Part shown: positions 17,406 to 46,353 of the stretch, in pieces
Layout of the letters: each line of letters starts with the position of its first letter
How positions within the stretch are numbered: the first letter of the stretch is position 1
Assembly: GCA_902475535.1 (NCBI GenBank)
Contig: CABRZR010000006.1
Span: forward strand, 22,720-86,719
Length of the DNA stretch: 64,000 nucleotides
DNA from: an uncultured Coriobacteriia bacterium
GTDB lineage: Bacteria > Actinomycetota > Coriobacteriia > Coriobacteriales > QAMH01
Direction: 5' to 3'
Program-made: the position numbers and the translations under genes
Notes under the pieces: model-generated
Database searches by the model: none
What the model was told of the DNA's origin: nothing
What the model saw: the letters and a program-made list of their open reading frames with translations, nothing else

Positions 17406-17414
17406 AAAGCTGGA

Positions 17415-18413
17415 ATGCGCATGACGAAGAGCGAGGGCAAGGGCAAAAGGGTCGTGCTATGGGTCGTAGGCATCATAGCCGGCGTGCTTCTCCTTGCCCT
17501 CGTCGTCATTAACGTGTACGTGCGCGTCGCGTACCACACGTACTACTCCGAGGCCCAGCGCGAGTTCAACATTCCCGGCATCCATGACGGCTTCGTGTGC
17601 CAGGACCTCGATTATTACGATGAGGGTAGCTGCTGGTTCTTCAGCGGCTATGATGTAAGCGGTGGCCCCTCGTACATCTATCGTCGCGATGCCGATGGCA
17701 CCGTCGCCCGTCTGCTCGTGATGCTCCCCGACGGCTCGATCTACGATGATCACGGCTCGGCCATAACGACGAACAGCCAATACGCCTTCCTGGCAAGCGA
17801 GGATGGCTACTTCGTCCTCAGTGCGTCAGACCTCGCCTCGGCAAGCGCCGGCAGTGCGGTGCAGACCATCTCCGCAGTCGATCTCGACATCACGCCGGCC
17901 TTCATGAACATCGAAAACGACACGCTCTACGCGGGTACCTTCCACCTCATCCCAAGCTATCCCGCCCCTGCGGAGCATCACCTCATCGCGCCTGACGGCA
18001 GCGAGAATGCTGGGGTCATACTCGCCTATCCGGCAGATGCAAACGGCGCATTTGGCTACGCCACGCAGGCAGCCTATGTCTATTCCATCCCGGATGCCGT
18101 TCAGGGCATGGCAGAGCTTCCCGATGGCAATATCATGCTCTCGAGCTCCTACGGGCTCACGTCCTCGCACCTGCGCACCTACGATGTGCACGATGCGCAG
18201 CAAGGCGCGACCTTCCTCGTCGACGGGCGCGAGGTGCCTCTGTACTTCCTCGATTCGACCAACCTCGTGGCAGACCTCGTTGCCCCGCCCATGAGCGAGG
18301 GCATCGAAAGCCACGACGGGCGCATCTGGATATCGGAGGAGTCCGCAGGCAACAAGTACCTCTTTGGCAAGCTCTTCGGTGCCGGCTCCGTGTACTCGAT
18401 CCTGGCTCAATGA
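17415..18413 (+). CDS. Membrane-anchored hypothetical protein (single N-terminal TM, large extracytoplasmic domain)
   Basis: 332-aa ORF starting 9 nt after the previous stop. TM segment VVLWVVGIIAGVLLLALVVINVYV. The remainder is rich in short beta-strand-like repeats. I recognise no motif. Confidence 0.6.
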   Translation: MRMTKSEGKGKRVVLWVVGIIAGVLLLALVVINVYVRVAYHTYYSEAQREFNIPGIHDGFVCQDLDYYDEGSCWFFSGYDVSGGPSYIYRRDADGTVARLLVMLPDGSIYDDHGSAITTNSQYAFLASEDGYFVLSASDLASASAGSAVQTISAVDLDITPAFMNIENDTLYAGTFHLIPSYPAPAEHHLIAPDGSENAGVILAYPADANGAFGYATQAAYVYSIPDAVQGMAELPDGNIMLSSSYGLTSSHLRTYDVHDAQQGATFLVDGREVPLYFLDSTNLVADLVAPPMSEGIESHDGRIWISEESAGNKYLFGKLFGAGSVYSILAQ

Positions 18414-29809: not shown

Positions 29810-30499
29810 TCATTTCACGACGGTAAAGTCAACGAGAAACGGATTGACGCTGTTCATGAATTCCTTGCGATGGGCCACGGTTGCCTGACCTTCGGGAATA
29901 GTTTTGAAAGCATTGGCAACTTCGGATGCCTCGCTGAAAAACAGCTCGAGTATCCCATCAAACGGGAGCCTGTCATGAGTAACATGACGACCATTTATCA
30001 TACGGTCGATAATGAGATGCTGGTTATACCCGTAGAAAATGTCAGTAGGCATCTTCGCCATGCATCCCGAATGAACGACAAACCATTCGCGAGTGAAGTC
30101 CTCAAATGACACATCCGGCACCGTGCGGCCCAGCAACGTCATCTTCTTCTGGCATCCATCCTCAACGCGCAGGGGAATGGACACGTTTTCAAGGCAGACG
30201 TAGGTCTCTTCGTACATCACCGCGTTTACGCGCTCACACAAAACCGCTGCATATGCATTGGATCTTCTAGCCTCCTCGTATGCGTCGAGATCGACATAGC
30301 GCTCGATGGTAAACGCATCGGCAAGAATCGCTTCAGAAGAGGCGTCACCGCGTTCCTTGGCAGTGACCCGATCGAACTCGAAGGATTCGAGCTCGGGGAT
30401 TTGAAGACACAGGGGTGCATAGACATCGTGCAGAAATGCGTCAAATTCGCTGTCTGAGATAGTCGGATCTTTGCGTAAGAGGTTAATGCAGGAAATCAT
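29810..30499 (-). CDS. Tandem EthD-domain protein (paralog 1 of 3)
   Basis: The ORF was trimmed to the ATG at 30497-30499, giving 229 aa starting MISCINLLRKDPTISDSEFDAFLHDVY. It shares the MIS.(I/M).LL(K/R) start, the Y(N/A)Q(N/H)L(V/I)IDR motif and the LP(V/F)(E/D)G..E(F/L)(W/F)F motif with the proteins at 32862-33563 and 41948-42643. Confidence 0.6.
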   Translation of the reverse strand: MISCINLLRKDPTISDSEFDAFLHDVYAPLCLQIPELESFEFDRVTAKERGDASSEAILADAFTIERYVDLDAYEEARRSNAYAAVLCERVNAVMYEETYVCLENVSIPLRVEDGCQKKMTLLGRTVPDVSFEDFTREWFVVHSGCMAKMPTDIFYGYNQHLIIDRMINGRHVTHDRLPFDGILELFFSEASEVANAFKTIPEGQATVAHRKEFMNSVNPFLVDFTVVK

Positions 30500-30626: not shown

Positions 30627-31118
30627 CTACATCATGAAGACCTTATAGGCATTGGCCGTATCCTCGTAGCGCTTCTTTATCTCGGCTTTACCACGTAGGT
30701 ACGTCAGTGACATCTCGGTAAAGTACCAGCGGCCATCGATTTTCACGTAGGCGTTGTCATAGTGGGCACGTCCGACAAACTCGCCGCCGTTCTCCGCATC
30801 GTAGAGATCGTCCTCAAGTGACCAGTGTGATGTTGCCGTATCTGGCCCCGTGATGTCGATCCAATGATGATGCCCCTGATGACTCGAGGTCACGTTGTCG
30901 CCGAACTTACCCTTCATGGTCTCGAGCATGCCATCGCGTCCTTCGTAACGGCCACCTGTCGTATTGTTGATGAAGACGAAGTCCTCGACAAGGCATGCAG
31001 CAAGTCCATCCCAGTCCTTGGCGTCGAGCGTGTCCCAATACGTCGCTTGAAGTCGCTCGATCGCACGCATGTCCTCGAGAGCCTGGATGCGTTTTTCAAG
31101 ATCCTCCATGGTGCTCAT
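30627..31118 (-). CDS. SnoaL_4 / NTF2-fold protein (BaiE-like dehydratase/isomerase fold)
   Basis: 163-aa ORF beginning with an N-terminal helix (LEKRIQALEDMRAIERLQATYWDTLDAKDWDGL). It has Tyr27-x4-Asp32, a His cluster at 80-85 (SSHQGHHHW), and WSLEDDL...YDNAYVKIDGRWYF, characteristic of the SnoaL_4 family. Confidence 0.7.
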   Translation of the reverse strand: MSTMEDLEKRIQALEDMRAIERLQATYWDTLDAKDWDGLAACLVEDFVFINNTTGGRYEGRDGMLETMKGKFGDNVTSSHQGHHHWIDITGPDTATSHWSLEDDLYDAENGGEFVGRAHYDNAYVKIDGRWYFTEMSLTYLRGKAEIKKRYEDTANAYKVFMM

Positions 31119-31130
31119 GGCAATCGCTCC

Positions 31131-31880
31131 TTACAAGAGGCTGAATCCGCCCTCTTCGTAGATGGTCTCGCCAGTGATGAACGAGGCATCATCCGAGGCG
31201 AGGAAGAGGGCGACGCTTACCATCTCCTCGATCTCGCCATAGCGACCAAACGGCATCTTTGCCAGGAAGGCGGCGTTGCGCTCCGGGTCGAACCTCGTGC
31301 CTTCCGTGATGCGAGTCTTCGAGGTGCCCGGGGCAACGGCGTTGACGTGAATGTCGTATTTGGCGAGCTCAAGCGCCATAACCTGCGTGAGCATGCTCAC
31401 GGCTGCCTTGGAAGGGCCGTAGGGCGTGATGCCGCCGATGGTCTTGCGTGCGCTATTGGAGCTCGTGTTGACGATATATCCCTTGATGCCCTTATCGACC
31501 ATCGTACGCGCAACGGCCTGGCCCACGTAAAACACGCCGTTCAGATTCGTGTCCATGACGTCGAGCCAGCCTTCCTGACTGCACTCGAGGAAAGGCTGAC
31601 GATGGGTGATGCCCGCATTGTTCATGAGGACGTCGATATGACCAAACTCCTCGATGACCTTGGCGACGCTCTCCTGCACCTGCCCATAGTCGCGAACATC
31701 ACAGTGCATGCAATACACGCGCTCGTTATCGGCGTAGACCTCTTCCATGGTATCGTCTTCGATATCGAAGACGATGACCTGTGCGCCTTCCCTCACGAGC
31801 TGCTCGGTCATGCCACGACCCAGACCATTGGCACCGCCGGTCACCAGCGCGATTTTGTCGATGAACCTTTGCTTTTCCAT
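31131..31880 (-). CDS. Short-chain dehydrogenase/reductase (classical SDR, 249 aa)
   Basis: Motifs ALVTGGANGLG, NNAG and catalytic YGPSKAA. It lies 12 nt upstream of the SnoaL_4 gene. Confidence 0.88.
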   Translation of the reverse strand: MEKQRFIDKIALVTGGANGLGRGMTEQLVREGAQVIVFDIEDDTMEEVYADNERVYCMHCDVRDYGQVQESVAKVIEEFGHIDVLMNNAGITHRQPFLECSQEGWLDVMDTNLNGVFYVGQAVARTMVDKGIKGYIVNTSSNSARKTIGGITPYGPSKAAVSMLTQVMALELAKYDIHVNAVAPGTSKTRITEGTRFDPERNAAFLAKMPFGRYGEIEEMVSVALFLASDDASFITGETIYEEGGFSLL

Positions 31881-31898
31881 GGATGCTTCCTTTCGGTC

Positions 31899-32795
31899 CT
31901 ATTGCTTGTCAGCCGTCGCCAGGTGTAGATAGGTTGTGGCACCGCCATCGGCCGCGATGGATTCGCCGTTGATGAAGCTCGCGTCATCGGAAGCGAGAAA
32001 CAGCGCGACCGAAGCGATCTCTTCGGGAAGCGCGTAGCGCTTCATCGACGATGCCTCGCTGAGACCCTTGCGGTTCTGTCCCCTGGGCAGCGTCATGTCC
32101 GTAAGGATGAGCCCGGGGTTCACCGCATTGACACGCACCCCGTAGGCCCCCAGGTCGGTAGCTGCGGCACGGGTTGCGCCCAAAGCCGCGGCCTTGGCCA
32201 TCGCGTAGCCGATAAGATTGCCAGGACCAAAGTGATTGCCCTGGTAGGAGCAGGTATTGACGATAGCACCACCACCTGAGTCGATGATGGCCTGGGCACA
32301 GTAGTGCATGCCGTTGTAGACACCCCAGCAATCGACGTCCATCATGCGCTCGAGATCCTGGCGGGATGCCGTGAGAACCGACCCGTTCACGCAAATGCCG
32401 GCATTGTTCACGAGCACGTCGAGATGTCCTTGCTCGTCGAGTATCTTCTCGACGAGCTTCTGCCAGGCGACCTCGTCGACGACGTCCATGGGAAAGACCA
32501 CGGCCTCTCCCCCGTCATCCCTGATCTGCGCTTCCACACGCCTGAGCCCGTCTTCCTTGACGTCGGTCATGTAAACCGTCGCGCCTTGCTGAGCGAACAT
32601 CTTGGCTTCCATCTCGCCTTGGCCGCCAGCGGCACCAGTCACGATGACCACCTGGCCCTCGAACTTCCCGGAGCCCTTCTCGACCCGAGGCCAGCGCTTC
32701 GCCTGCTCCTCGCCATAGACCTTCTCCTCGAACTCCGCCTGACCAGGCCCCGAGAGGATGACGTCATCGAAAAATTCCGCGCGCTTTGACTTCAT
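31899..32795 (-). CDS. SDR with an approximately 50-aa N-terminal extension
   Basis: The ORF was trimmed to the ATG at 32793-32795, preceded by GGAGAG. Motifs VIVTGAAGGQG, NNAG and catalytic YAMAKAA. Confidence 0.85.
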   Translation of the reverse strand: MKSKRAEFFDDVILSGPGQAEFEEKVYGEEQAKRWPRVEKGSGKFEGQVVIVTGAAGGQGEMEAKMFAQQGATVYMTDVKEDGLRRVEAQIRDDGGEAVVFPMDVVDEVAWQKLVEKILDEQGHLDVLVNNAGICVNGSVLTASRQDLERMMDVDCWGVYNGMHYCAQAIIDSGGGAIVNTCSYQGNHFGPGNLIGYAMAKAAALGATRAAATDLGAYGVRVNAVNPGLILTDMTLPRGQNRKGLSEASSMKRYALPEEIASVALFLASDDASFINGESIAADGGATTYLHLATADKQ

Positions 32796-32810
32796 GGTTC
32801 TCTCCATTCA

Positions 32811-32852
32811 GGAAAAAGCGGCCGCATCGAATTCCATATCCGATGCGGCCGC
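32811..32852 (-). terminator. Strong intrinsic terminator between the EthD gene and the SDR genes
   Basis: Perfect 12-bp stem GCGGCCGCATCG / CGATGCGGCCGC with an 11-nt loop. On the minus strand it is followed by TTTTT. It lies 10 nt after the EthD stop and its T-tract ends 15 nt before the SDR start. Confidence 0.75.
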
Positions 32853-32861: not shown

Positions 32862-33563
32862 CTAGTCTTCCAGTTCGACGGGAACCGCTTCGACAAAGTA
32901 GGTCGTCACCGTTCCGATGAACTCGGCGGCATGGACGCTTGCGCGCTTCTTGAAGCCCACGCTGCCATAGCATTCGTCGAAGGCTTCCATGTCCTCGAAC
33001 CAGAACTCGACCATACCCTCGACCGGGAGATCCTTATAGTGGACCTCTTCGTCACCGATGCAGCGGTCGATCACCAGGTTCTGGTTGTAGCCGCAGCATC
33101 CTCCCATCAGTTCCACCAGTATGGAGTGGACGTACCACCACTCGAAGTGGAAGGTCATGGCATCGACGCCCTCGGCGCGGTCGCAGAACGAGACGCGCTT
33201 GATGATGTCGCGACCCTTGAGGTACTCGGGGACGAGCTTGTCGAATTTCCTGACCGTGACAAGCGCGGAGATTGGCTTTTCCACGATGGGTTCGAGCACG
33301 TCGCGAAGGGCATCGCCGGCCTGGGTCATGCACTTTGCCATGTCCCCGTAGCTGTCGAAGATCATCTCTATGAAACCGTCGATGTCAATCGCCCCGCGAC
33401 ACAGATGCGAACGCTGCTGCTTATCGGTCACGAAGTTGATCTCGCACTTGCGCAGCAGGGGCATCTTGGCGATTACGTCACGCGCCTCCCCCATCATCAC
33501 CGCGCGGAATTCCTCTTCGGAAATTCCCTCCTTGCACTTGAGTAGATTAATTCTGGAAATCAT
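32862..33563 (-). CDS. Tandem EthD-domain protein (paralog 2 of 3)
   Basis: 233-aa ORF starting MISRINLLKCKEGISEEEFRAVMMGE. Its second half (IIKRVSFCDRAEGVDAMTFHFEWWYVHS...YNQNLVIDR...LPVEGMVEFWFEDMEAFDECY) repeats the EthD pattern. Confidence 0.65.
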   Translation of the reverse strand: MISRINLLKCKEGISEEEFRAVMMGEARDVIAKMPLLRKCEINFVTDKQQRSHLCRGAIDIDGFIEMIFDSYGDMAKCMTQAGDALRDVLEPIVEKPISALVTVRKFDKLVPEYLKGRDIIKRVSFCDRAEGVDAMTFHFEWWYVHSILVELMGGCCGYNQNLVIDRCIGDEEVHYKDLPVEGMVEFWFEDMEAFDECYGSVGFKKRASVHAAEFIGTVTTYFVEAVPVELED

Positions 33564-33588: not shown

Positions 33589-34851
33589 TTAGTTCTCGGC
33601 ATTCTTGGCTTCCATCATGGCAGCATCGCGAGCCTTCATCTTGTTGTAGATCGGCAGACCGATTGCAAGCAGGATGATTGCGATGATGCAAAGGACGCCC
33701 AGGATGGGAAACGCCGTGCTATAGCTGCCCGTTGCGGCGAGCGTGTTGGCGGAGAGCATGGGGCCGATGACGGCCGCAAGCGCATAGCCCCAGTACATGA
33801 AGCCATAGTTCTGGCCCATGTTGGCCGGGCCAAAGGCATCGCCAGTAAGCGAAGGCATGATGGCCATGATGCCGCCAAAGCACATGCCCAGCACGATCGA
33901 CTCGATGATGAAGGGCATCGTGGAATCGGTGTTTCCATAGAGGAACAGGTGAATCACCGCGGTGATGCCGATAACGATGAACAGCGTCTGGAATCGTCCG
34001 ATCTTGTCGGAGAGAGTGCCAAAGCCAAAGCGTCCGGCGGCATTGGCAACGGCGAAGATGCTGACCATCATGGCGCCCGTCGCGGCATCCATGCCCGCTT
34101 GCGTCTGGCCGACGAGGGATGCGGTACCGAGCATGAACACGCCCGTGCATGCGGTGAGCGCGAATACGATGACCATGATCCAGAAGAGCGGGGTCTTCAT
34201 CATCTCGGGCGTAGTGTAGCTCCTGCGGTTCTTGGCCTCCTCGTCAACGGGAGGATTCCAACCCTCGGGCTGGTAGTCTGCAGGCGGCAGAACGTAGCAA
34301 AGCCACGAGAAGATGAGGAACATGACGATGCTGAACGCGCCCACGACCATGAACGAGGGCATGGGACCGATTGCCTGCACGATCATGTTTCCGACCGGGG
34401 CAGTCCACAGCGGCCACAAGGCCATCGTGGCGAGCGAGATACCGTTGACGAGGCCCTTCTTGTCCGGGAACCAGCGCGTGGTCAAGGCCAGCGACGTGTT
34501 GTAGATAATGCCATCGGCAAAGCCGACGATGATGCCGAAGGTGATGAGCAGCATGATGGGATTCGTTGAAAAGCCCGTGAGAATCCAGCCGATGCCAAAG
34601 ACGATACCGCTGACGAGCATGATCTTGTGAGCCGCGAACTTGCGCTGGAACCAGCCGCCAACGGGGCCACCCGCAAAGCCAATGACAACGATGGCGAGCG
34701 TGTAGGCGAGTGCCACGATCTGCGGCGACCAGCCAAACTCGGCCATCATGGGTTTCTGAAAAATGCTGTAGCAATTCAATGATGCGGTGATCGCTCCGCA
34801 CATTGCCGCGCCGACGAGAACTACCCAGCGCGATTTAGGCTTCATTGCCAT
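33589..34851 (-). CDS. MFS transporter, oxalate/formate-antiporter (OFA)-like subfamily
   Basis: The ORF was trimmed to the ATG at 34849-34851, 4 nt after GGAGGA, giving 420 aa. It has 12 predicted TMs and a TTRWFPDKKGL motif shared with the partial MFS at the window end. Confidence 0.8.
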   Translation of the reverse strand: MAMKPKSRWVVLVGAAMCGAITASLNCYSIFQKPMMAEFGWSPQIVALAYTLAIVVIGFAGGPVGGWFQRKFAAHKIMLVSGIVFGIGWILTGFSTNPIMLLITFGIIVGFADGIIYNTSLALTTRWFPDKKGLVNGISLATMALWPLWTAPVGNMIVQAIGPMPSFMVVGAFSIVMFLIFSWLCYVLPPADYQPEGWNPPVDEEAKNRRSYTTPEMMKTPLFWIMVIVFALTACTGVFMLGTASLVGQTQAGMDAATGAMMVSIFAVANAAGRFGFGTLSDKIGRFQTLFIVIGITAVIHLFLYGNTDSTMPFIIESIVLGMCFGGIMAIMPSLTGDAFGPANMGQNYGFMYWGYALAAVIGPMLSANTLAATGSYSTAFPILGVLCIIAIILLAIGLPIYNKMKARDAAMMEAKNAEN

Positions 34852-35152
34852 GTGTTCCTCCAATATAGCTTCCGAAAGATTACGTGCATGCGAAAGGCAT
34901 CGCCTTTCCCCCAAACCGAGACCCCTCCTCCTTTCGTTTCGACGTGCAAACCGTTCTATACGCACATGATTCCGATGCTGCGATACGTGCTGATGTGCCG
35001 GAGTCAATTGATGCCGAAACTGGACTAGATCCTCACCGCTGCGTTGCGGTTCATGCCAAGAAGCCAGAGAAAACAATGAGGAAGATGACCCCACTTGCCT
35101 TGAAGGTATCCCTCCTCACGAGATGTATGCTATGAGGGTTTCAAGATGACCT

Positions 35153-35211: not shown

Positions 35212-36609
35212 CTACAGAAAGCCAAGTCCTCTCATGAGCATGACGCTGGCGATGAGAAGGGCTGCGGTGATGACCGCATAGGGCCCGTTCCACTTGAGAC
35301 TCGCCTCCATGGGAGATGCCTGCACCATGTCCGCAACGGCGATGACATTTGCCGAGGCGGGGCAGATCGTATTGCCCAACGCCCAGCTCATCGACAGGAC
35401 AAGCGCAAGGTACGCAGCCGATATTCCGCACAGCGCAGGGTCAATGGCACCTCCTATGACGGCCGTTGCCACGATGGGATGAATCCCCGCCGCACAGGTA
35501 AGCAAGACGATGATGACGATGGCCGTCGTCAGAAGCAGCACGCTTTGACCGGTGGTGAGCACGAGGGCTTGCGCGATGACATCCCCGATGCCCGAATATC
35601 CGATGCTCTGGGCGAGCATGCCCGCTCCCGCGAAGAGGACGATCTGGTTCTTGGCACCGGGAAGCTTCTTCTCGAAATACGCGTTCTTGAGCTCCTTGCG
35701 ATATAGGGAAAACCGCCTGATGAAGAGCATCCAGACAAAGGGCCACACCAGCGATGCCATGGCGACGACGATGATGGCCGAAAGGCCGAACAGTTGGGAA
35801 ACCAGGGCGATGAAGACTATGAGGAGCACGGAGAAGACGGCGAGCTCCGCCACCTTTGCCTTGTCGATGCTTCCGGGGGCATCCTTGGATGCACTCGCGC
35901 CATCGTCCATCGCGGAAGCCTTCCCACCCAGCTTGCGCGAGAGCACCGTCATCAGGATGCCGACGCCCTCTGCGACAAGAGCGCAAACGATTGCGCAGGG
36001 GGCAAAGCTCACCCACTCTGCGCTTGTCACCGAAACGACCAGAGCGATGGTCGCCGACGTGGGCGCCCATATCATGCACGTGACGAACCCGCGCGCAAGG
36101 GCCGTCCCCAGGAGCCTCTTGTTGGCTCCCAGACGGCTTTCACGCGACATCTCGAACGTAAGCGGTACGGCGGCGATGCTTATGAGCGCACCGGCTACAG
36201 CCGCCATGCCGCTTACGAGCGAATAGTATCGTCCCTCCGAGTTGGCATATCGCGCAAACAGGCTCCTCAGCGATTCGTTATAGCCCCCATGTTGGACGGG
36301 TATGCCAATAAGCGGAATCAGGATGAACATGACGATGAGGTCGGCGTTCTTGCGAAGCGCACGCACCCATTCCTCGACCGGTGCCTGGGCATACAGCAGC
36401 AACCCGACGCTTATGACAATGAGGACGATGCCGATGAGCCGTGACGATCCCGTCGAGACGAAAATGCTCATCACGAGCACCACGACCATGAGGACAGCGT
36501 TCACGTCATCGAGCAGCGGAGCATGCAGAAAGACGTTGATGATGTAGCACACGGCGAAGCACAGGGTGATGACGCTACGCGTGGTACGTATGGCAACGGG
36601 CTCTTTCAT
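35212..36609 (-). CDS. Polytopic permease of unknown specificity (two-repeat ion-transporter-superfamily-like architecture)
   Basis: 465-aa ORF behind the RBS AAGGGAGAGGG. It has about 12 hydrophobic helices split by a central hydrophilic loop (LGGKASAMDDGASASKDAPGSIDKAK). I recognise no named motif. Confidence 0.6.
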   Translation of the reverse strand: MKEPVAIRTTRSVITLCFAVCYIINVFLHAPLLDDVNAVLMVVVLVMSIFVSTGSSRLIGIVLIVISVGLLLYAQAPVEEWVRALRKNADLIVMFILIPLIGIPVQHGGYNESLRSLFARYANSEGRYYSLVSGMAAVAGALISIAAVPLTFEMSRESRLGANKRLLGTALARGFVTCMIWAPTSATIALVVSVTSAEWVSFAPCAIVCALVAEGVGILMTVLSRKLGGKASAMDDGASASKDAPGSIDKAKVAELAVFSVLLIVFIALVSQLFGLSAIIVVAMASLVWPFVWMLFIRRFSLYRKELKNAYFEKKLPGAKNQIVLFAGAGMLAQSIGYSGIGDVIAQALVLTTGQSVLLLTTAIVIIVLLTCAAGIHPIVATAVIGGAIDPALCGISAAYLALVLSMSWALGNTICPASANVIAVADMVQASPMEASLKWNGPYAVITAALLIASVMLMRGLGFL

Positions 36610-36714: not shown

Positions 36715-38034
36715 CTAGCTATTAACCGGTGTACCGTCCTTGCGGTAGTAGCGTTTCATGAGGAAGATCGCGACGAGAATCGAAACGACGTCAGCGGCGA
36801 TGATGAAGAAGGCAAGGGAGATCGCATTTCCCGTCCCGGCGATAATCGCGGTCGCAATGGCCGGGGCCATGCCGCCAAAAACCGCGGCCGCAAGGTTGTA
36901 GGCGAGACCGACGCCGCTGTTGCGCGTCTCGGTGGGATACACCTCGGATGCCGCCGTGGCCACCGCCACCGCGTTGAGTGACTGGAAGGGCAGCAGACAT
37001 GCCAGGGCGCAGATCATGATCAGCACGGCATGCCCGTTGATGACGGCCCAGAAGACCGGGTAGGCAAGTACGATGAATCCCAGGCACGCGATGATGACAG
37101 ACTTCCTGCGCCCGAACTTGTCCGCGAACATGCCCGCAAACGGGCAGAGGACCAAATATACAGCAACGACGGCGGTATTGACGATAAAGCCCTCGAGCAT
37201 GGTCCCGCCGACGAACTCCTTGATATAGGTAGGCAGGTAGGTCACCAACAGGTAGTAGGAGACGCTGGTGCCGGCAAGCAGGCCGATGTTGGTGATCATG
37301 GCGACCCAATGCTTCTTGAAGAGGACCTTGACGGGCGTGTGATCTTCCTCGGTGGCCTTCTTCTGCTCCTTCATCTTCTCGAACTCGGGAGGCTCGGGCA
37401 CGCTTTTGCGCAGGTAGACGCCATAGATGGCGACGACGATGCCGATGAGGAACGGAATGCGCCAACCCCAGGCGTAAAGATCGGGCTGGGATAGCACCGA
37501 CGTGCAAATCAGACCGGTGATCGATCCGATGAGCATGCCGACGCCGACACTGAACGGCTGCCAGCTGACGAGGAAGGAGGTGTTCTTGCCGTTGTTGAAC
37601 TCAGAGATGAACGTGAGGGCGGAACCGAACTCGCCGCCAGTCGCCAGGCCCTGCAGCAAGCGCAGGACCGTGAGCAGGATGGGTGCCATGATGCCAATCT
37701 GCTCATAGGTCGGCAGACATCCCATGAGCATGGTGCATATGCCTATCGCCATGATGGTGACGGTGAGCGACTTCACGCGCCCGTGCTTATCCGCGTAGGC
37801 TCCCATGATGAGGCCGCCAATGGGGCGCACGACAAAGCCGACGCCAAACACCATGAAACTCATGAGAATGCCGACAACGGGATCTTCGGACGTGAAGAAC
37901 TCCGCGGAAATGACAACCGCAAAGTAACCGTATAGGCCATAGTCGTACCATTCCAGGACGTTACCCAGGCATCCAGAGAGTATCGACTTGAAAAGCGATG
38001 CGTTCTTCTGGGCGGGTTGAACTTCTTTTGCCAT
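36715..38034 (-). CDS. MFS transporter, metabolite:H+ symporter (MHS)-like
   Basis: The ORF was trimmed to the ATG at 38032-38034, after AAAGGGGAG, giving 439 aa. LEWYDYGLYGYFAVVIS resembles the EW(Y/F)DF..YG motif of MHS carriers (ProP/KgtP/ShiA type). Confidence 0.75.
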   Translation of the reverse strand: MAKEVQPAQKNASLFKSILSGCLGNVLEWYDYGLYGYFAVVISAEFFTSEDPVVGILMSFMVFGVGFVVRPIGGLIMGAYADKHGRVKSLTVTIMAIGICTMLMGCLPTYEQIGIMAPILLTVLRLLQGLATGGEFGSALTFISEFNNGKNTSFLVSWQPFSVGVGMLIGSITGLICTSVLSQPDLYAWGWRIPFLIGIVVAIYGVYLRKSVPEPPEFEKMKEQKKATEEDHTPVKVLFKKHWVAMITNIGLLAGTSVSYYLLVTYLPTYIKEFVGGTMLEGFIVNTAVVAVYLVLCPFAGMFADKFGRRKSVIIACLGFIVLAYPVFWAVINGHAVLIMICALACLLPFQSLNAVAVATAASEVYPTETRNSGVGLAYNLAAAVFGGMAPAIATAIIAGTGNAISLAFFIIAADVVSILVAIFLMKRYYRKDGTPVNS

Positions 38035-38227
38035 GCGTGCTCCCCTTTCGTAAAGACCTCCATGCGCCCCAAAACAAACTGCTCCATGTGCGGGAGTCCG
38101 ATATCGCGAGGCGCCTTCCCATCTGCATCTACGCCCGTGCAAAGCATTGCGATCGACACGATCGGGTTACGGGAAGATGCATGTATCCCATCTAAGGGAA
38201 ATGGTATGGCCGGCAGGAAACGGCGCT

Positions 38228-38332: not shown

Positions 38333-40393
38333 CTAAATCCGGCATGCAGCCTCTCTGCCATCGATGATGGCGTGCTTGACGAACGCGTTATCGCCTCCCA
38401 GCGTGGAGCCAATCTCCACGACCTCGACACCCGCGTTCCTGAGCTCATCGCAAAACGCGGCATCGCGCTTCTCGGGAAGCATGACGAGAACGCTGTCGCA
38501 GCCAAAGGTGCGCTCCCTGCCATCCACCTCCGCAATGACGAGACCCTTGCGGATCTCCTTGCATGTGGCATTGCGCACGACCTCGACGCCGTTTTCCTCG
38601 AACCAGGGCTCCAAGCGCACCTTGTAGGGCACGGGAACCAATCCGCCGATGTCATCGTCTTCCGAGAGCAGCGTGACGTCCTTTCCGCAGTGGGCCATGA
38701 ACGTTGCGCACTGCGCGCCCTCGGCACCGGCACCCAAAACGACTATCTTCTTGCCCACGGGCATGAAATGCCTGCTCGCCTTGTGTATGAACTCGGGACT
38801 GAAGAGCTTGAGCGGGAGTTTCGCGAGCTTCGAAAGCCCGGGGATGGTGTACACGTTGCTGCCGTCGATACCGGGAATGTCGGGAATCAGATATGGCGAG
38901 CTGTTGGCGAGCATGACCACATCGGGTTTTTCTCGCCTGACGAGCTCTGCCGAGACCTCCTCGTTGAGATGCACCCGCACGTCGTACTTGCCCACCATGG
39001 TGGTGAGGTAATCGTAGATGGGCATGATGTCCTCGACCTTGTTGCCCTTGATCATCGATGCCAGCTTGAGCCTGCCACCCAGCTCGCCGGACCTCTCGTA
39101 CAAGTCCACGTCATGACCGCGAGCCGCCGCGTCAATGGCCGCCTGCATGCCAGCAGGACCTCCGCCGATGACCATTACCTTCTTCCTTGTCTCAGCGGGC
39201 TTGAGCTCGAGCTCCTTCTCGCGCCCGAGCGCGGGATTCACGCGGCAGATACGCGGTGAGACGAGCGGGTCCTGACACGACCCGCAGCGATTGCACCGGC
39301 GAATCTCGTCGATGCGTTCCTCCTTCACCTTGTTGGGAAACTCGGGGTCTGCCCATAGATAGCGGCCAAAGCCGATGATATCGGCATAGCCTTCCTCGAG
39401 CGCGCGCTCGCCCTTGACCTCGTCCATACGACCGACGCACACGACAGGCACCTTGACGGCATCGTGGATGTACTTTGCCGCCGGAAGCAGCAGTCCCATG
39501 TCCTCGTAGTCCTTCATGTAAGGACGCATGTGGGGCTCGGGGTCGGGATACGGAAAGTAATCCGGAATGAAGCGGAACGGAAGCTCGCCATAACCATATC
39601 CGGTCACGCTGATGTATTGGTATCCAATCATCTCGAGCGCTATGGCGGTGTCGCGCGCCATGTCGGGCGTGATACCGTTATTTCCCGTCAAGGGCGAGAA
39701 CTCGATGCCGTTGATGCGCGTGCCGATGAGAAAGTCGGGACCGCATGCCTGCCGAATCATCTGGTAGAGCTCTGCCATGACACGCGTGCGATTGGCCACG
39801 TTCTCGAAGGCATACTCGTCATCGCGCTTGTTCCATATGGGGCTGAGGAAGCTGTTGAGCAGGTATCCATGTGCGGCATGCACCTCGACACCGTCAAATC
39901 CGGCCTTCTTCATGCGCACGGCGCCCTCGACGATGAGCTTCTCCTTCTCGTGAATCTCCTCGACCGAGAGCCCGCGTGTCGCGCGCCCCTCGGGTTCGGG
40001 AATGGGAAGGTCCTCGGTCTCAATTGTCGACGAGCTGAAGGGTCGCCCTTCGCCGAGCACGGCCGCGGAAGGCCCACCATGGTGGAGCTGGCCTATGATA
40101 TAGCTGTCATGGCGATGCACGGCCTCCGCGAGCTCGGTCAAGCCCGGGATGAACTTGTCATCCCAGACGTTGCAGTAGCGCCCGGGCATGTCATCCCACA
40201 TAACGCCGCCGATGACCACGGCCGCCGCGCCGCCTGCGGCGATGCTCTCGTACAAACCGATTGCCGCGCTTCCATCGGCGGTGCCGTCATCGTTCCAGCG
40301 AAACGTTGACTGGCCCGTCTTCATGATGCGGTTCTTGAAGATAATCTTCGGCGTGATCTCCAGCGGAGACATAAGTTTTTCGAAGCCACCCAT
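38333..40393 (-). CDS. FadH/OYE-type Fe-S flavoenzyme (NADH:flavin oxidoreductase / enoate-reductase family), paralog A
   Basis: 686-aa ORF. The OYE TIM-barrel signature is HAAHGYLLNSFLSPIWNKRDDEY. The Cys cluster is CNRCGSCQDPLVSPRIC. Two dinucleotide folds are present (VMVIGGGPAGMQAA and VVLGAGAEGAQCA). Confidence 0.88.
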   Translation of the reverse strand: MGGFEKLMSPLEITPKIIFKNRIMKTGQSTFRWNDDGTADGSAAIGLYESIAAGGAAAVVIGGVMWDDMPGRYCNVWDDKFIPGLTELAEAVHRHDSYIIGQLHHGGPSAAVLGEGRPFSSSTIETEDLPIPEPEGRATRGLSVEEIHEKEKLIVEGAVRMKKAGFDGVEVHAAHGYLLNSFLSPIWNKRDDEYAFENVANRTRVMAELYQMIRQACGPDFLIGTRINGIEFSPLTGNNGITPDMARDTAIALEMIGYQYISVTGYGYGELPFRFIPDYFPYPDPEPHMRPYMKDYEDMGLLLPAAKYIHDAVKVPVVCVGRMDEVKGERALEEGYADIIGFGRYLWADPEFPNKVKEERIDEIRRCNRCGSCQDPLVSPRICRVNPALGREKELELKPAETRKKVMVIGGGPAGMQAAIDAAARGHDVDLYERSGELGGRLKLASMIKGNKVEDIMPIYDYLTTMVGKYDVRVHLNEEVSAELVRREKPDVVMLANSSPYLIPDIPGIDGSNVYTIPGLSKLAKLPLKLFSPEFIHKASRHFMPVGKKIVVLGAGAEGAQCATFMAHCGKDVTLLSEDDDIGGLVPVPYKVRLEPWFEENGVEVVRNATCKEIRKGLVIAEVDGRERTFGCDSVLVMLPEKRDAAFCDELRNAGVEVVEIGSTLGGDNAFVKHAIIDGREAACRI

Positions 40394-40413: not shown

Positions 40414-41160
40414 CTAGAACAGCGTGAAGCCGCCATCCTCAACCAAGGTCTCGCCGGTAACGTAGGAAGCGTCGTCACTTGCCAGGAACAGCGCGACGTT
40501 TGCGGCCTCCTCGGGAGCGCCATAGCGGCCCATGGGAATGTTGGCGAGAAACTGCGCGTTGCGCTCGGGGTCATTCCTCGTGCCCTCGGTAATGCGCGTC
40601 ATGCTCGTGCCCGGCCCGAAGGCATTGACGCGGATTCCATGTTCGGCAAGCTCCAAGGCGAGCCATTTGGTCAGCTGGGACACACCCGCCTTGCTGGCGG
40701 CGTACGCGCCGGTGTTCTTGGAGACCGTGCGCGACGTGCATGAGCTCGTGTTGACGATGGCACCCTTGATTCCGCGTTCGATCATCGACTTCGCCACGGC
40801 CTGGTCCATCCAAAAGCATCCATTGAGGTTGATGTCGATGACGCGCCGCCATTCCTCCTCGGTCGTGCTCTGCACGCTCCCGCGTTTGATGATGCCCGCG
40901 TTGCTGAAAAGGATGTCGATATGCCCGTATGCCTCGAGCACCTCGTCTACCACCTTGTTGCACATGGCGTAATCGGCAACGTCGAGGGGATAGATCGTGA
41001 TGTTCTCGTTGCCCTCGAATTCGCGTACCAACGTGTCACCCTCGATATCGAGCGCCGCAACCTTGGCACCCTCTTCGAGAAGGCGGCAGACAATGCAATG
41101 GCCAATGCCGTTTGCCGCGCCCGTCACCACGGCCACTTTATCCTCGAACCTCTTGCCCAT
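40414..41160 (-). CDS. Short-chain dehydrogenase/reductase (248 aa)
   Basis: Motifs AVVTGAANGIG, SNAG and catalytic YAASKAG. It lies 20 nt upstream of ene-reductase A and 24 nt downstream of the HxlR gene. Confidence 0.88.
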   Translation of the reverse strand: MGKRFEDKVAVVTGAANGIGHCIVCRLLEEGAKVAALDIEGDTLVREFEGNENITIYPLDVADYAMCNKVVDEVLEAYGHIDILFSNAGIIKRGSVQSTTEEEWRRVIDINLNGCFWMDQAVAKSMIERGIKGAIVNTSSCTSRTVSKNTGAYAASKAGVSQLTKWLALELAEHGIRVNAFGPGTSMTRITEGTRNDPERNAQFLANIPMGRYGAPEEAANVALFLASDDASYVTGETLVEDGGFTLF

Positions 41161-41184: not shown

Positions 41185-41676
41185 CTATTCTTCTGCCTCG
41201 TCCTCGTCACACGCGGTGTCGAAGTACCAGACAATGTGCTCGCGCGTCTTATCGATCTTGCCGTCCTCACCCCCGGTGCCGTATTCGAGCTTCCCATCGT
41301 TGAGGGAGCCCTTCGTTTGCTTGAGTGCCTCAACCGAGAAGTTGCGGTGCACGACGCCCCAATCGCGAATGAGATACAGGAGGTTTGCCATGCTGATGCC
41401 GTCTGGCGTGAGGAGATAGTCGACCCACAGGGGCTTGTCTTCGACCACGACACGTTCGAGCATGCCCGTCTCCTCGAGCTCGTTGAGATGCTGCGAGAAC
41501 ATCTTGTCCGATATCTTGTACGGGATGATTTTCTTGAGCTCGCCGTAGCGCGCACGTTGATGAGGTTGCAAGCTCAGGTACCAGATGATGAACGGCTTCC
41601 ACTTGCCACCCAAGATCTTTGTGAGGACCTGCGTAAGCATGCATGAGGTTAACCTGTCGATACTGTTAGGATCCAT
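41185..41676 (-). CDS. HxlR-family winged-helix transcriptional regulator with an approximately 60-aa C-terminal extension
   Basis: The ORF was trimmed to the ATG at 41674-41676, 8 nt after GGGAGG. The HxlR signature is LGGKWKPFIIWYL...RYGELKKIIPYKISDKMFSQHLNELEETGMLERV. It is the first gene of the HxlR-SDR-ene-reductase run. Confidence 0.85.
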   Translation of the reverse strand: MDPNSIDRLTSCMLTQVLTKILGGKWKPFIIWYLSLQPHQRARYGELKKIIPYKISDKMFSQHLNELEETGMLERVVVEDKPLWVDYLLTPDGISMANLLYLIRDWGVVHRNFSVEALKQTKGSLNDGKLEYGTGGEDGKIDKTREHIVWYFDTACDEDEAEE

Positions 41677-41947
41677 CACAATCGCCTCCCGAGCCACGCC
41701 ATTACCTCGACCGGCCTCTGGTCAAAGACACTCACGGAATCCCTGCGCAATAGAGATGCAAGGAGATTATTATTGCCCCCCCCTGAAAGCAATCACAGAG
41801 CCAGGGGGTTTGTGGTAGATACAGGACCGAAGATATGTCCTCATCGACGCCTGCCCTTCCCCGTCTATAACGACATGGGGCCGGACTCGTCGAGCCCGGC
41901 CCAAACCACCACACTTCAAGCTAGGTTCGCTATCTGGCAATGGCAAG

Positions 41948-42643
41948 CTAGAGTATGTCGTGTACCTCGGTAAGATACGTGTTAATCGCACCGATGAACT
42001 CGCTGCCGTGCTGCGACGTCCTCTTGAACTCGGGAGAGTCGTAGCATTCGTTGAAGGCATCCATGTTCTCGAACCAGAACTCGACGACGCCCTCGACAGG
42101 AAGCTCGTCATAATGGACGGAAACGCCGTTGACGATGCGATCGATCACGAGATTCTGCGCATAGCCAACGTAACCCGGCATGGTGTGCACCATTTCGGTG
42201 TGAACGTCCCACCACTGGTACATCCACTCCTCGGCGCTCACGCCCTCGGCTCGACCCATGAACGACACGCGCTTGATAAGCGGCTTGTCGCCATTCAACA
42301 AGTATTTGGGAGTGTGTTTCACGAACTTCTTCACGCAAACGAGAATGGGATTATGCGGGTCGGCGAACTTCGGAACGTCATCGGCACCCTTGCCGTCTAA
42401 CGACATGACGCCCTCGACCATGTCGCCATAGCTATCAAACTGCAGCTCGGAATAGCCATCGATGATGATGGGACCCTGGCCCAAGGGATGACGATGCTCG
42501 TTGTCGCATACCGCGTGCTGAGAGTAATGGCGCAGGTTCTTCATCTCCGCGGCGATGGGACCATGGACGTTGAGCCAGTAATCCTTGAATTCTTCCTGCG
42601 TCGTGCCCTCTTTGCGCTTCAAGAGACCCATTCTGCTAATCAT
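41948..42643 (-). CDS. Tandem EthD-domain protein (paralog 3 of 3)
   Basis: 231-aa ORF. The N-terminus MISRMGLLKRKEGTTQEEFKDYWLNVHGPIAAEMKNLRHYSQHAV closely follows the EthD-family consensus as I recall it. A second EthD-like half follows. It is divergent from ene-reductase B. Confidence 0.7.
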   Translation of the reverse strand: MISRMGLLKRKEGTTQEEFKDYWLNVHGPIAAEMKNLRHYSQHAVCDNEHRHPLGQGPIIIDGYSELQFDSYGDMVEGVMSLDGKGADDVPKFADPHNPILVCVKKFVKHTPKYLLNGDKPLIKRVSFMGRAEGVSAEEWMYQWWDVHTEMVHTMPGYVGYAQNLVIDRIVNGVSVHYDELPVEGVVEFWFENMDAFNECYDSPEFKRTSQHGSEFIGAINTYLTEVHDIL

Positions 42644-46328: not shown

Positions 46329-46353
46329 GACGCCTTGACGACCCCAGGCTCTG

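Follow-up and report, generated by a model that had tools for sequence, protein, structure and literature searches.

An Eggerthellaceae gene system that combines three short-chain dehydrogenases (SDRs), two Fe-S flavoenzymes and three or four tandem-EthD proteins, and that has no CoA genes, includes as a conserved part a gene for a SnoaL_4 protein whose nearest characterised relative is BaiE. We lean towards a model in which this protein would act as a cytoplasmic, cofactor-independent dehydratase, within a dehydroxylation route that would oxidise, dehydrate and then reduce its substrate without recourse to CoA. On sequence comparison it appears to be a lineage separate from BaiE and BaiI and an orthologue of neither, and nothing in our analysis marks a bile acid or a steroid as its substrate.

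The SnoaL_4 gene and its product

The window is the whole stretch of DNA analysed here, 64,000 nucleotides from an uncultured Coriobacteriia bacterium; its relevant features are collected in Table 1. The initial annotation had pointed to a 163-residue SnoaL_4 protein and left its strand unstated. The marked interval is exactly one ORF of that length, running from ATG to stop on the minus strand, and its product contains every motif that had been singled out (ATYWDTLDAKDW, SSHQGHHHWIDI, WSLEDDL and YVKIDGRWYF) as well as Tyr27, Asp32, His80 and His83-85. It matches Pfam SnoaL_4 (PF13577, NTF2-like superfamily) over profile positions 1-125 of 126 with 85 bits against a cut-off of 24 (E = 5e-24), and misses the cut-off of NCBIfam TIGR02246 (SgcJ/EcaC; 31.1 versus 33.95 bits). 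The AF2 monomer model (pLDDT 87.6, pTM 0.85) is a cone-shaped alpha+beta barrel with a long helix at the N-terminus and a curved sheet of six strands, and the top Foldseek matches are all NTF2-like.

That the gene is real follows from 108 homologues, nearly all of 163 residues, from a dN/dS of 0.03-0.08 (in pairs without dS saturation) and from synteny that is kept in 14 of 18 genome loci; it is under strong purifying selection. Databases name the homologues only "nuclear transport factor 2 family protein", without a function. Tyr27, Asp32, His80 and Tyr120 are invariant across the family, and His83, Asp103 and Arg142 are conserved in at least 90% of it. We propose Tyr27, the Asp32-His80 dyad, His83, Asp103, Tyr120 and Arg142 as the candidate catalytic set. 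The motif HQGHHHW is specific to this family. A plus-strand ORF (30864-31928, 354 aa) overlaps the gene; it lies opposite two genes with strong Pfam matches and is probably a high-GC antisense artefact.

Relationship to BaiE

BaiE, the homotrimeric bile-acid 7alpha-dehydratase of 7alpha-hydroxy-3-oxo-delta4-cholenoic acids, is the nearest solved or characterised relative of the protein (phmmer E = 1e-16; family profile 1e-28), at 30-35% identity. The profile search places it 17 orders of magnitude ahead of the other solved relatives (LdpA, 5e-11; a scytalone-dehydratase-like protein, 2e-10), and it is also the top Foldseek match, with a TM of 0.76-0.79 and an rmsd of 2.2-4.5 A (2.2-2.6 A in three of the four BaiE entries). 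The structural neighbours that come next (scytalone-dehydratase-like, LinA and LdpA) are all elimination enzymes, a putative scytalone dehydratase (3EF8) and LinA (3S5C) being the fifth and sixth best structural matches at 17-27% identity.

Residues 4-106 align with BaiE residues 7-109 without a gap. The literature assigns catalysis in BaiE to Tyr30, Asp35 and His83, the triad that the initial annotation had named, and substrate contact to Asp106, Tyr126 and Arg146; the Asp-His distance in BaiE is 2.8 A. Tyr27, Asp32 and His80 fall on that triad, His83 and Asp103 on His86 and Asp106, Tyr120 on Tyr126 and, in a short C-terminal alignment to 4L8O only, Arg142 on Arg146; the equivalence of these active-site residues is one of sequence alignment and global structural fit. 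The initial annotation had staked its reading on such an alignment and on the nature of the closest homologues. It survives on both counts, because the Tyr/Asp/His residues coincide with the catalytic residues of BaiE and the nearest characterised relatives carry out elimination, not polyketide cyclisation.

The description "BaiE-like" is sound for the closest characterised homologue and for the aligned triad and contact residues, but it does not extend to orthology, to the pocket loop or to Tyr115. When 114 other sequences (representatives of clusters, members of the family and BaiE fragments) are ordered by their distance from the SnoaL_4 protein, BaiE comes about 100th (99th-110th), and its cluster is not among the best 150 of 1504 hits. 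In a neighbour-joining (NJ) tree the two proteins sit in separate clades, and their common ancestor spans the whole tree. There is essentially no identity between the extended-pocket loop of BaiE, residues 48-63 (SPNIVTSYSNGKLVFH), and residues 45-60 of the protein (EDFVFINNTTGGRYEG). The CoA-adenine-stacking Tyr115 of BaiE is absent as well; a Gly occupies the equivalent position, in a loop that is 3-4 residues shorter.

Nor is the Tyr-x4-Asp plus His arrangement distinctive: about 90% of the 115 sequences in the comparison have it. Because about 90% of relatives share the catalytic residues, the motif marks an elimination-type subgroup and not bile-acid specificity and, carried as it is by about 90% of related SnoaL_4 clusters, it is on its own unfit for calling bile-acid dehydratases in metagenomes. 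The catalytic constellation is generic for the subgroup and supports acid-base elimination in general and no one reaction; some relatives that share the fold are lyases (LdpA), dehydrochlorinases (LinA) and possibly isomerases.

The surrounding gene cluster

Table 1. Positions of the SnoaL_4 gene and of neighbouring features in the window.
Feature	Position	Strand	Description	Evidence and remarks
EthD_A	29810..30499	(-)	Tandem EthD-domain protein, 229 aa	Likely ATG start; ORF extends to TTG at 30622
SnoaL_4	30627..31118	(-)	SnoaL_4 protein, predicted cofactor-free hydro-lyase	Pfam, BaiE homology, model, residue conservation, dN/dS
SDR1	31131..31880	(-)	Classical short-chain dehydrogenase, NAD-type, 249 aa	adh_short_C2, E 1e-63
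SDR2	31899..32807	(-)	Short-chain dehydrogenase, NAD-type, 302 aa	N-terminal extension of ~50 aa
Hairpin	32818..32852	(-)	Terminator-like, 15-bp G+C-rich stem then T-run	Between EthD_B and SDR2
EthD_B	32862..33563	(-)	Tandem EthD / MmlI-like protein, 233 aa	Conserved core partner
MFS1	33589..35094	(-)	Oxalate/formate-family MFS, SfMCT monocarboxylate (L-lactate) type	NF049980, 353 bits vs 320
Membrane protein	35212..36609	(-)	Polytopic, 465 aa, putative carboxylate transporter	No Pfam match
MFS2	36715..38142	(-)	Metabolite/H+ symporter (MHS) type	TIGR00883, 372 bits vs cut-off 443
OYE1	38333..40393	(-)	Fe-S flavoenzyme, 686 aa, predicted ene-reductase/desaturase	
SDR3	40414..41160	(-)	Short-chain dehydrogenase, NAD-type, 248 aa	
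Regulator	41185..41697	(-)	HxlR-family transcriptional regulator, 170 aa	PF01638, E 5e-17
EthD_C	41948..42643	(-)	Tandem EthD / MmlI-like protein, 231 aa	EthD, E 4e-24; MmlI, 2.5e-07
OYE2	42888..44954	(+)	Fe-S flavoenzyme, 688 aa	Divergent from EthD_C; Cys369/372/375/385

The immediate neighbourhood is as first described, with two SDR genes directly upstream and an EthD gene adjoining; all lie on the same strand, and the EthD gene is directly downstream. The SDR1 gene stops 12 bp short of the SnoaL_4 start. SDR1 carries the motifs TGxxxGxG and YGPSK, with FDIED after beta2; its PDB matches are generic SDRs only. Those of SDR2 are generic too, with BaiA (4is2, E = 3.5e-34) and 7alpha-HSDHs found among many and not at the top. 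The catalytic motifs of the cluster SDRs are intact, and their signatures are NAD-type. SDR2, SDR1 and SnoaL_4 are parted from the upstream genes by a hairpin that may mark the limit of an operon or serve as an attenuator; it is a pattern match only, and shuffled sequence yields at least as many such sites as the region does.

The FadH-like ene-reductases that had been noted nearby correspond to two Oxidored_FMN plus Pyr_redox_2 genes, 7-12 kb from the SnoaL_4 gene. Both products have the OYE TIM barrel, four-Cys motif (CxxCxxC-x9-C; Cys367/370/373/383 in OYE1) and FAD/NAD(P) domain of the class to which FadH, BaiCD, BaiH and BilR belong. Neither reaches the cut-offs of the named equivalogs BaiCD (287-291 versus 825 bits, OYE1 scoring 291), BilR (303 versus 750 for OYE1) or mycofactocin OYE. 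No curated functional family in NCBIfam was matched by the SDRs or the OYEs, and the database name of the flavoenzymes is only "FAD-dependent oxidoreductase".

The N-terminus of EthD_A (MISCINLL) parallels those of EthD_B and EthD_C. What stands at the EthD_A position varies between strains; in one that is 99% identical, the place is taken by an EthD that is diverged and inverted. EthD_B, with 149 homologues named only "EthD", gives a model with a pLDDT of 92.4. Domain by domain it comes closest to 4-methylmuconolactone methylisomerase (TM 0.8 at 21-25% identity), and over the whole protein the leading structural matches are labelled "putative monooxygenases" (10-12% identity); we predict a cofactor-free isomerase-type protein. 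A possible identity with bacterial chalcone isomerase, which would have been a pointer to flavonoids, was dropped (TM 0.45-0.5, 12% identity).

All three transporters are predicted to be carboxylate types. MFS1 probably begins close to residue 82 of the ORF as listed. The polytopic membrane protein has a weak DcuC-like match (E = 7.5e-07, far below the cut-off) and a 57-59% orthologue in the array of the E. lenta type described below. MFS2 stays below threshold for the TcuC, ProP and ShiA families.

Among the large window ORFs scanned, none has an AMP-ligase, CoA-transferase or acyl-CoA dehydrogenase domain. The lack of CoA-activation genes, which had been remarked, weighs less than the initial annotation implied, because BaiE itself takes a CoA-free substrate (literature) and therefore provides a precedent for CoA-independent chemistry. 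Of the bai operon set (baiB, baiF, baiCD, baiH, baiA, baiG), the window holds class-level analogues only. The dehydroxylation logic that had been proposed stands to that extent, with SDR, Fe-S flavoenzyme and MFS genes mirroring BaiA, BaiCD/BaiH and BaiG at class level; nothing here ties it to bile acids or steroids. Farther away, a curated-threshold bile salt hydrolase is encoded 23 kb from the cluster with many unrelated genes between, and one Mo-oxidoreductase is encoded about 5 kb beyond the cluster.

Conservation across genomes

The SnoaL_4 lineage is mostly Eggerthellaceae. SDR1 adjoins SnoaL_4 in 14 of 18 genome loci, and MFS1 lies upstream of EthD_B in several. The parts that recur at several loci are three SDRs, two Fe-S flavoenzymes, tandem-EthD proteins, two MFS transporters and the DcuC-like protein, and at loci L027-L029 they are colinear in one array, in which the EthD protein carries the NCBI label Eggerthella lenta (E. 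lenta); the SnoaL_4 copy at L027 is 82% identical to the one described here. OYE2 orthologues at 62% sit inside the colinear array in other genomes. The EthD partner with the E. lenta label is found in 503 blocks of the genome collection, and the array appears to be common in apparent E. lenta genomes. A suggestion that E. lenta has a truncated copy only (P0088, 130 aa) was rejected, since a contig end cuts that gene and intact copies of 163 residues exist. Of the outside lineages whose gene context could be read, the three closest again pair SnoaL_4 with SDR and/or OYE/FadH and MFS genes. The family is present in human, mouse and chicken gut genomes, and the cluster extends to related genera from these hosts. 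Our literature search found no paper on the cluster and none that pairs EthD or NTF2/SnoaL proteins with E. lenta; an E. lenta proteomics paper contained nothing relevant to it.

Discussion

Gut bacteria that dehydroxylate bile acids and steroids thereby alter host signalling, and the only such pathway that is understood genetically, the bai operon, is limited to a few rare Clostridia. The Eggerthellaceae cluster described here has the bai enzyme classes and a BaiE-type active site, lacks the CoA chemistry and adds EthD proteins. From the fold, the homology and the conservation of residues and gene content, we infer a reaction type, an order of steps, roles for the partner proteins and a class of substrate.

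By homology with BaiE, scytalone dehydratase and LinA, we propose the following mechanism. An NAD-dependent SDR would oxidise the substrate at a ring hydroxyl, which becomes a ketone, after which one of the Fe-S flavoenzymes may add a conjugated double bond. In the SnoaL_4 pocket, the carbonyl would be polarised or protonated by Tyr27, with Tyr120 as backing; the Asp32-His80 dyad would take the acidified alpha (or vinylogous gamma) proton and protonate the leaving beta (or delta) hydroxyl, giving water and an enone or dienone. The C=C bond(s) so formed would be reduced by OYE1 and OYE2 and the ketone would be reduced again by an SDR, so that the net outcome would be the reductive removal of one hydroxyl. 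The tandem-EthD proteins, we would guess, probably relocate double bonds or act as epimerases on intermediates. A hydroxy compound with a carboxylate and an alicyclic or polycyclic skeleton is the probable substrate, and it would be imported by the three transporters (monocarboxylate, MHS and DcuC-like); bile acids or steroid acids make one plausible candidate. Points against this model are the generic catalytic constellation, the hairpin upstream of SDR2, the 7-12 kb to the flavoenzyme genes in this window and the failure of the SDRs and OYEs to match a curated functional family.

A more specific reading, doubtful but tenable, is that the array is a CoA-independent counterpart of the Hylemon-Bjorkhem pathway and removes a bile-acid or steroid hydroxyl at a position without known genes; candidates are the 16alpha position (orphan dehydratase), 12alpha- or 6-dehydroxylation and a 7beta route. 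If this were true, Eggerthellaceae would be a second, mechanistically distinct lineage that dehydroxylates the steroid nucleus, and any role in host steroid or bile-acid dehydroxylation would supply genes for an orphan activity in a genetically tractable organism. Should the substrate be dietary, the cluster would still represent a new and widespread "SDR - SnoaL_4 dehydratase - Fe-S ene-reductase" module.

A dietary plant compound (for example a flavonoid, lignan, stilbenoid or hydroaromatic acid such as quinate or shikimate), with the SnoaL_4 protein as a dehydratase or LdpA-like lyase acting on a benzylic or alicyclic alcohol, is in our judgement an unlikely answer. Polyphenol transformations are what Eggerthellaceae are best known for, and the literature has Fe-S flavoenzymes of the OYE1/OYE2 class reducing flavonoids as well. 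The family of MFS2 includes shikimate and aromatic-acid transporters, the occurrence of SnoaL_4 in the guts of three hosts fits a dietary substrate, and LdpA, with its stilbene-bound structure, is the second-best solved family. LdpA is, however, far more distant than BaiE (5e-11 versus 1e-28) and has an additional domain, and polyphenol-specific families, of which the Mo-dependent catechol dehydroxylases are an example, are missing from the cluster. There is a distant resemblance between the tandem ferredoxin-like fold of the EthD proteins and bacterial chalcone isomerase, but the match is as poor as reported above.

We consider it improbable that the SnoaL_4 protein is a functional equivalent of BaiE or BaiI, that is, a 7alpha- or 7beta-dehydratase of 3-oxo-delta4-7-hydroxy bile acids in a cluster for CoA-independent bile-acid 7-dehydroxylation. 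Six catalytic or contact residues are conserved with BaiE, the nearest characterised homologue, the cluster has class-level counterparts of BaiA, BaiCD/BaiH and BaiG, and BaiE accepts a CoA-free substrate. Bile acids are monocarboxylates, and one MFS transporter of the cluster is of the monocarboxylate type; Eggerthella is also known as a bile-acid oxidiser. Against these points stand the low identity (33-35%), the distance rank of BaiE, its place in a separate clade, the unrelated pocket loop and the scores of OYE1 and OYE2, about 290 bits against a BaiCD cut-off of 825. A bile salt hydrolase gene is present, but many unrelated genes separate it from the cluster. The array is, moreover, common in apparent E. 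lenta genomes, yet cultures of E. lenta, which do oxidise and epimerise bile acids, are not known to form DCA or LCA.

The protein is very unlikely to be something other than a dehydratase, whether a double-bond isomerase or epimerase akin to ketosteroid isomerase or an NTF2 protein that binds a ligand or serves as a scaffold and has no catalytic role. The NTF2-like fold does serve many activities and non-catalytic roles, fold alone cannot give the reaction type, and ketosteroid-isomerase-like structures occur lower in the Foldseek list. However, the invariant Asp-His dyad and Tyr pair are the signature of BaiE, scytalone dehydratase and LinA; ketosteroid isomerase has a Tyr/Asp/Asp set. Strongly conserved polar pocket residues argue against a purely structural role, and the cluster already holds three or four EthD/MmlI-like proteins as isomerase candidates.

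We give least credence to dehydration of a neutral steroid hormone, either 16alpha-hydroxyprogesterone (with a delta16 ene-reductase) or another steroid with a ring or side-chain hydroxyl beta to a ketone: the CoA-free dehydratase and ene-reductase logic fits the 16alpha-dehydroxylation that Glass and Bokkenheuser reportedly described in an intestinal Eubacterium in the 1980s, and to our knowledge EC 4.2.1.98 still has no assigned gene, but three carboxylate-type transporters are unexpected for neutral, membrane-permeant steroids, and three SDRs and two flavoenzymes exceed the need of a one-step beta-elimination plus reduction. The NTF2-type dehydratases BaiE and Comamonas SteC do work on steroid rings, and the literature has Eggerthellaceae transforming corticoids and progestins; we found none that ties the organism to 16alpha-dehydroxylation.

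Our preferred reading, a dehydratase within an oxidise-dehydrate-reduce sequence, can be set against several known systems. Scytalone dehydratase and LinA share the fold and the Asp-His dyad plus Tyr, and perform syn or anti elimination of water or HCl beside an activating group, but they act on small aromatic or alicyclic compounds, and their genes are without SDR and flavoenzyme partners. LdpA of Novosphingobium/Sphingobium, a lignin-dimer lyase (PDB 8ABT-8ABW), shares the SnoaL_4 core and a catalytic His; it differs in its ~80-aa extra domain (about 250 aa in total), in an identity of about 20% and in its reaction, deformylation plus dehydroxylation of diarylpropane diols. SteC of Comamonas testosteroni, a C12beta-hydroxyl dehydratase in steroid degradation with a reported BaiE-like structure (~28% identity), is by description alike as a SnoaL/NTF2 dehydratase of a steroid-ring hydroxyl, whereas its pathway is aerobic, CoA-ester-based degradation. 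BaiI, the SnoaL_4 paralogue of the bai operon and a putative 7beta-dehydratase whose function is itself unproven in the literature, is also likened by description, through its Pfam family and presumed dehydratase role; at the P0109 locus, which represents the nearest outside lineage, two SnoaL_4 genes stand in tandem, as baiE and baiI form a pair.

BaiE and its operon offer the closest parallel. The two proteins share the SnoaL_4 family, the alpha+beta barrel and about the same length, and both genes adjoin NAD-dependent SDRs and lie near Fe-S flavoenzymes and MFS transporters. The bai system has the CoA genes baiB and baiF, which have no counterpart here, whereas tandem-EthD proteins are added here, and BaiE comes from Clostridium whereas the SnoaL_4 protein belongs to an actinobacterium (Eggerthellaceae). 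The proposed sequence of steps would follow the same logic as bile-acid 7-dehydroxylation by the Hylemon-Bjorkhem pathway, with CoA thioesters in that pathway and none in this one.

A conserved SnoaL_4 gene related to BaiE

The SnoaL_4 gene is real, as its many homologues of uniform length and its low dN/dS show. Its product scored 85 bits against the Pfam SnoaL_4 model (gathering score 24), and a word-indexed search of 5.8 billion proteins returned 108 homologues at 57-93% identity, almost all exactly 163 aa long. Against orthologues, dN/dS was 0.03-0.08 wherever synonymous sites were not saturated. The motifs quoted in the initial annotation are all present in the minus-strand translation, with Tyr27, Asp32, His80 and His83-85 at the positions it gave. 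The neighbours are also those it described: two short-chain dehydrogenases (SDRs) directly upstream, an EthD gene downstream and FadH-like flavoenzymes nearby.

Features of the window discussed in the text
Feature	Position	Strand	Remarks
Choloylglycine (bile salt) hydrolase	6731-7744	-	NCBIfam 397 bits vs 350; unrelated genes between it and SnoaL_4 gene
Flavin reductase and fourth SDR	10998-12646	+	reductase with rubredoxin-like tail adjoins SDR (266 aa); outside main cluster
baeRF family 8 protein	16509-18413	+	bacterial archaeo-eukaryotic release-factor-like domain; then 332-aa protein without Pfam match
EthD_A	29810-30499	-	tandem EthD-domain protein
EthD_A segment	29795-30624		differs from L001:4504-5384
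SnoaL_4 gene	30627-31118	-	ATG-initiated ORF, 163 codons
SHQGHHH	30864-30884	-	residues 79-85
SDR1	31131-31880	-
SDR2	31899-32807	-
Hairpin	32818-32852	-	15 bp, G+C-rich, then T-run; between EthD_B and SDR2
EthD_B	32862-33563	-	tandem EthD-domain protein
MFS1	33589-35094	-	listed ORF from GTG/TTG well upstream; family homology from ~residue 89
MFS2	36715-38142	-	listed ORF from GTG/TTG well upstream; family homology from ~residue 47
OYE1	38333-40393	-	Fe-S flavoenzyme
SDR3	40414-41160	-
EthD_C	41948-42643	-	tandem EthD-domain protein
OYE2	42888-44954	+	Fe-S flavoenzyme
TauE/SafE-type exporter, LctP-family permease, molybdopterin oxidoreductase (787 aa)	45570-51905	-	just beyond cluster
LuxR/GerE-type regulator	61476-63113	+	further beyond cluster

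Among solved structures, BaiE, the bile-acid 7alpha-dehydratase of the bai operon, was the best sequence match (E 1e-16 with the single sequence, 1e-28 with a family profile), followed by LdpA (5e-11) and a putative scytalone dehydratase (2e-10). A confident AlphaFold model (pLDDT 87.6) placed four BaiE entries on top in Foldseek (TM 0.76-0.79), ahead of a putative scytalone dehydratase, LinA, Rv3472 and LdpA; the closest matches of the predicted fold are mostly elimination enzymes rather than polyketide cyclases.

Two reviews summarising Bhowmik et al. 2016 describe BaiE Tyr30 as the general acid, assisted by Tyr126, and His83 as a base/acid, with Asp35 tuning it. They give Asp106 and Arg146 as ligand contacts and Tyr115 as the residue stacked against the adenine of CoA, and they describe an extended pocket made by loop 48-63. 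Window residues 4-106 align without gaps to BaiE 7-109, in a numbering validated by all six named BaiE residues landing on the expected amino acids. By this alignment, Tyr27, Asp32, His80, Asp103 and Tyr120 correspond to BaiE Tyr30, Asp35, His83, Asp106 and Tyr126, and, from the 4L8O alignment, Arg142 to Arg146. Within the family, Tyr27, Asp32, His80 and Tyr120 do not vary, and conservation is 90% or more at His83, Asp103 and Arg142. The histidine run SHQGHHH is specific to this family; across a wider set of 115 sequences, position 85 (His here) is Pro in 80 and position 84 is variable. By analogy with BaiE, whose trimers are connected through ion-His coordination, the run may bind a metal or take part in oligomer contacts.

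A lineage separate from BaiE

The same residues do not single out a bile-acid enzyme. Searched exhaustively with HMMER, 1.84 billion cluster representatives yielded 1,504 relatives at E <= 1e-3, of which 208 reached E <= 1e-10 and only ten E <= 1e-30; the BaiE cluster fell outside the top 150. The 115-sequence alignment comprised the window protein, 106 single-domain representatives, five family members and three BaiE fragments. Asp32 and His80 are each present in 114 of these sequences, Tyr120 in 113, Tyr27 in 106, His83 in 100 and Asp103 in 92. The constellation is near-universal and is therefore a signature of this SnoaL_4 subgroup, not a mark of bile-acid specificity.

In a simple neighbour-joining tree (132 columns), BaiE came 99th-110th of 114 in closeness to the window protein, and the two met only at the root. 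BaiE loop 48-63 shares essentially no identity with window residues 45-60, and the Tyr115 loop is three residues shorter in the window protein, with Gly at the Tyr115 position. On sequence grounds, the window protein is not a BaiE orthologue; it represents a new branch of an enzyme type already known. The initial annotation is partly supported: it was right about BaiE homology and about Tyr27, Asp32 and His80 falling on the BaiE catalytic residues, and neither of the outcomes it named as fatal to its hypothesis was seen, but its Tyr-x4-Asp plus His arrangement is not distinctive. Several of the closest relatives (P0110, P0113, P0122, P0124-P0126 and others) are 430-530 aa long with three SnoaL_4 domains in tandem; because BaiE is a trimer, these may be covalently fused trimers.

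Genomic context and partner enzymes

Genomic context is the strongest functional evidence for the gene. The window is from Eggerthellaceae (Coriobacteriia; G+C ~59%), with a 99%-identical match in a Coriobacteriia MAG contig, and orthologues occur in Eggerthella sinensis, Rubneribacter badeniensis, Gordonibacter sp. An230, Ellagibacter and many human, mouse and chicken gut MAGs. Copies 75-76% identical, in other gene contexts, lie in MAGs labelled Oscillospiraceae or 'Candidatus Limivicinus' (L010, L017, L018); they may have spread by horizontal transfer, or the contigs may be mis-binned Eggerthellaceae DNA.

Gaps of 12 and 18 bp separate the SnoaL_4 gene and the two classical SDRs upstream, and Oxidored_FMN+Pyr_redox_2 proteins of 686 and 688 aa lie 7 and 12 kb away. 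An SDR1 orthologue directly precedes the SnoaL_4 gene in 14 of 18 genome loci, 13 of which also have SDR2 and EthD_B upstream. Several carry an inserted extra SDR, and in several, genes for an MFS1-type transporter and for flavoenzymes of the OYE type follow further upstream in the same orientation. On metagenome scaffolds L027-L029, whose EthD protein NCBI labels E. lenta, the whole set forms one colinear array: EthD - MHS-type MFS - DcuC-like membrane protein - EthD - flavoenzyme - flavoenzyme - MFS - EthD - SDR - SDR - SDR - SnoaL_4 (intact, 82% identical) - EthD, then a divergent FAD_binding_2 flavoprotein and a LuxR/GerE regulator. The window has the same parts in rearranged order, with an HxlR regulator.

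Outside this family, too, the module reappears. P0109, the closest of the outside relatives (47% identity), belongs to a compact operon (L019:4530-9768 and L020; G+C 54%) ordered TetR <> Fe-S flavoenzyme - SDR - SnoaL_4 (182 aa) - SnoaL_4 (163 aa) - MFS, whose tandem SnoaL_4 pair recalls baiE plus baiI. P0111 adjoins LysR - flavoenzyme - MFS, and P0118 two SDRs.

Within the window, no other site in the region resembles a terminator as strongly as the hairpin, so SDR2-SDR1-SnoaL_4 may be transcribed apart from the upstream transporter and EthD genes. On both sides of EthD_A, a MAG contig (L001) is 98-99% identical to the window, and only the EthD_A segment itself differs: there the contig has ~880 bp without DNA similarity, with an EthD protein of 74% identity encoded on the other strand, as if a cassette had been swapped or inverted locally between strains.

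Judged from intact motifs, the partner enzymes look functional: SDR1-3 have TGxxxGxG and YxxxK with an acidic residue after beta2 (NAD(H) type), and OYE1 and OYE2 each have a CxxCxxC-x9-C iron-sulfur motif. The OYEs belong to the FadH/BaiCD/BaiH/BilR class, yet score far below every curated equivalog threshold. The true MFS1 and MFS2 starts are probably internal ATGs (MAMKPKSRW... and MAKEVQPAQ...). The molybdopterin oxidoreductase beyond the cluster belongs to a class that carries out catechol dehydroxylation and comparable reductions in Eggerthellaceae.

Discussion

Our results lean modestly towards a substrate-agnostic model in which the SnoaL_4 protein is a cofactor-free hydro-lyase acting between NAD-dependent SDRs and Fe-S flavin ene-reductases. 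MFS1 scores above the curated cut-off for SfMCT, a monocarboxylate transporter, MFS2 belongs to the metabolite/H+ symporter type and a 465-aa membrane protein is weakly DcuC-like; these types point to a carboxylate substrate. Bile acids or steroid acids are attractive candidates on circumstantial evidence: they are monocarboxylates, the closest characterised homologue acts on them, Eggerthella is noted for its bile-acid chemistry and a bile salt hydrolase above curated threshold is encoded 23 kb away.

A plant-compound pathway is unlikely. The EthD_B model (pLDDT 92.4), a fused pair of ferredoxin-like domains, matches bacterial chalcone isomerase poorly; domain by domain, the best match backed by real sequence identity is 4-methylmuconolactone methylisomerase. 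Strict equivalence to BaiE, for which the bile-acid evidence would speak, we rate low: apparent E. lenta genomes commonly carry the array, yet E. lenta in culture oxidises and epimerises bile acids and is not known to form deoxycholate or lithocholate. A role other than dehydration is slightly less probable again, and a neutral-steroid dehydratase (for example, of 16alpha-hydroxyprogesterone) is the least probable of these readings. A literature search found no paper mentioning these gene products in Eggerthellaceae, and the dehydratase hypothesis can be tested directly in a gut bacterium that is both tractable and widespread.

From the fold, homology, residue conservation and conserved gene content observed here, we infer the reaction type, step order and partner roles of the hydro-lyase model. 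An SDR would make a ketone, and a flavoenzyme may extend the conjugation; Tyr27 and Tyr120 would polarise the carbonyl, and the Asp32-His80 dyad would take the acidified proton and protonate the departing hydroxyl. OYE1 and OYE2 would reduce the resulting enone or dienone, the ketone then being re-reduced; for the EthD proteins, double-bond isomerisation or epimerisation is plausible. The proposed logic is that of the bai pathway, but without thioesters: as the initial annotation noted of CoA activation, no CoA-ligase, CoA-transferase or acyl-CoA dehydrogenase domain was found among the large ORFs scanned in the window. Such thioester-free logic is chemically reasonable because BaiE turns over a CoA-free substrate and its CoA points into solvent. 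We regard the cluster as a novel form of the dehydroxylation scheme 'oxidise, dehydrate, reduce'.
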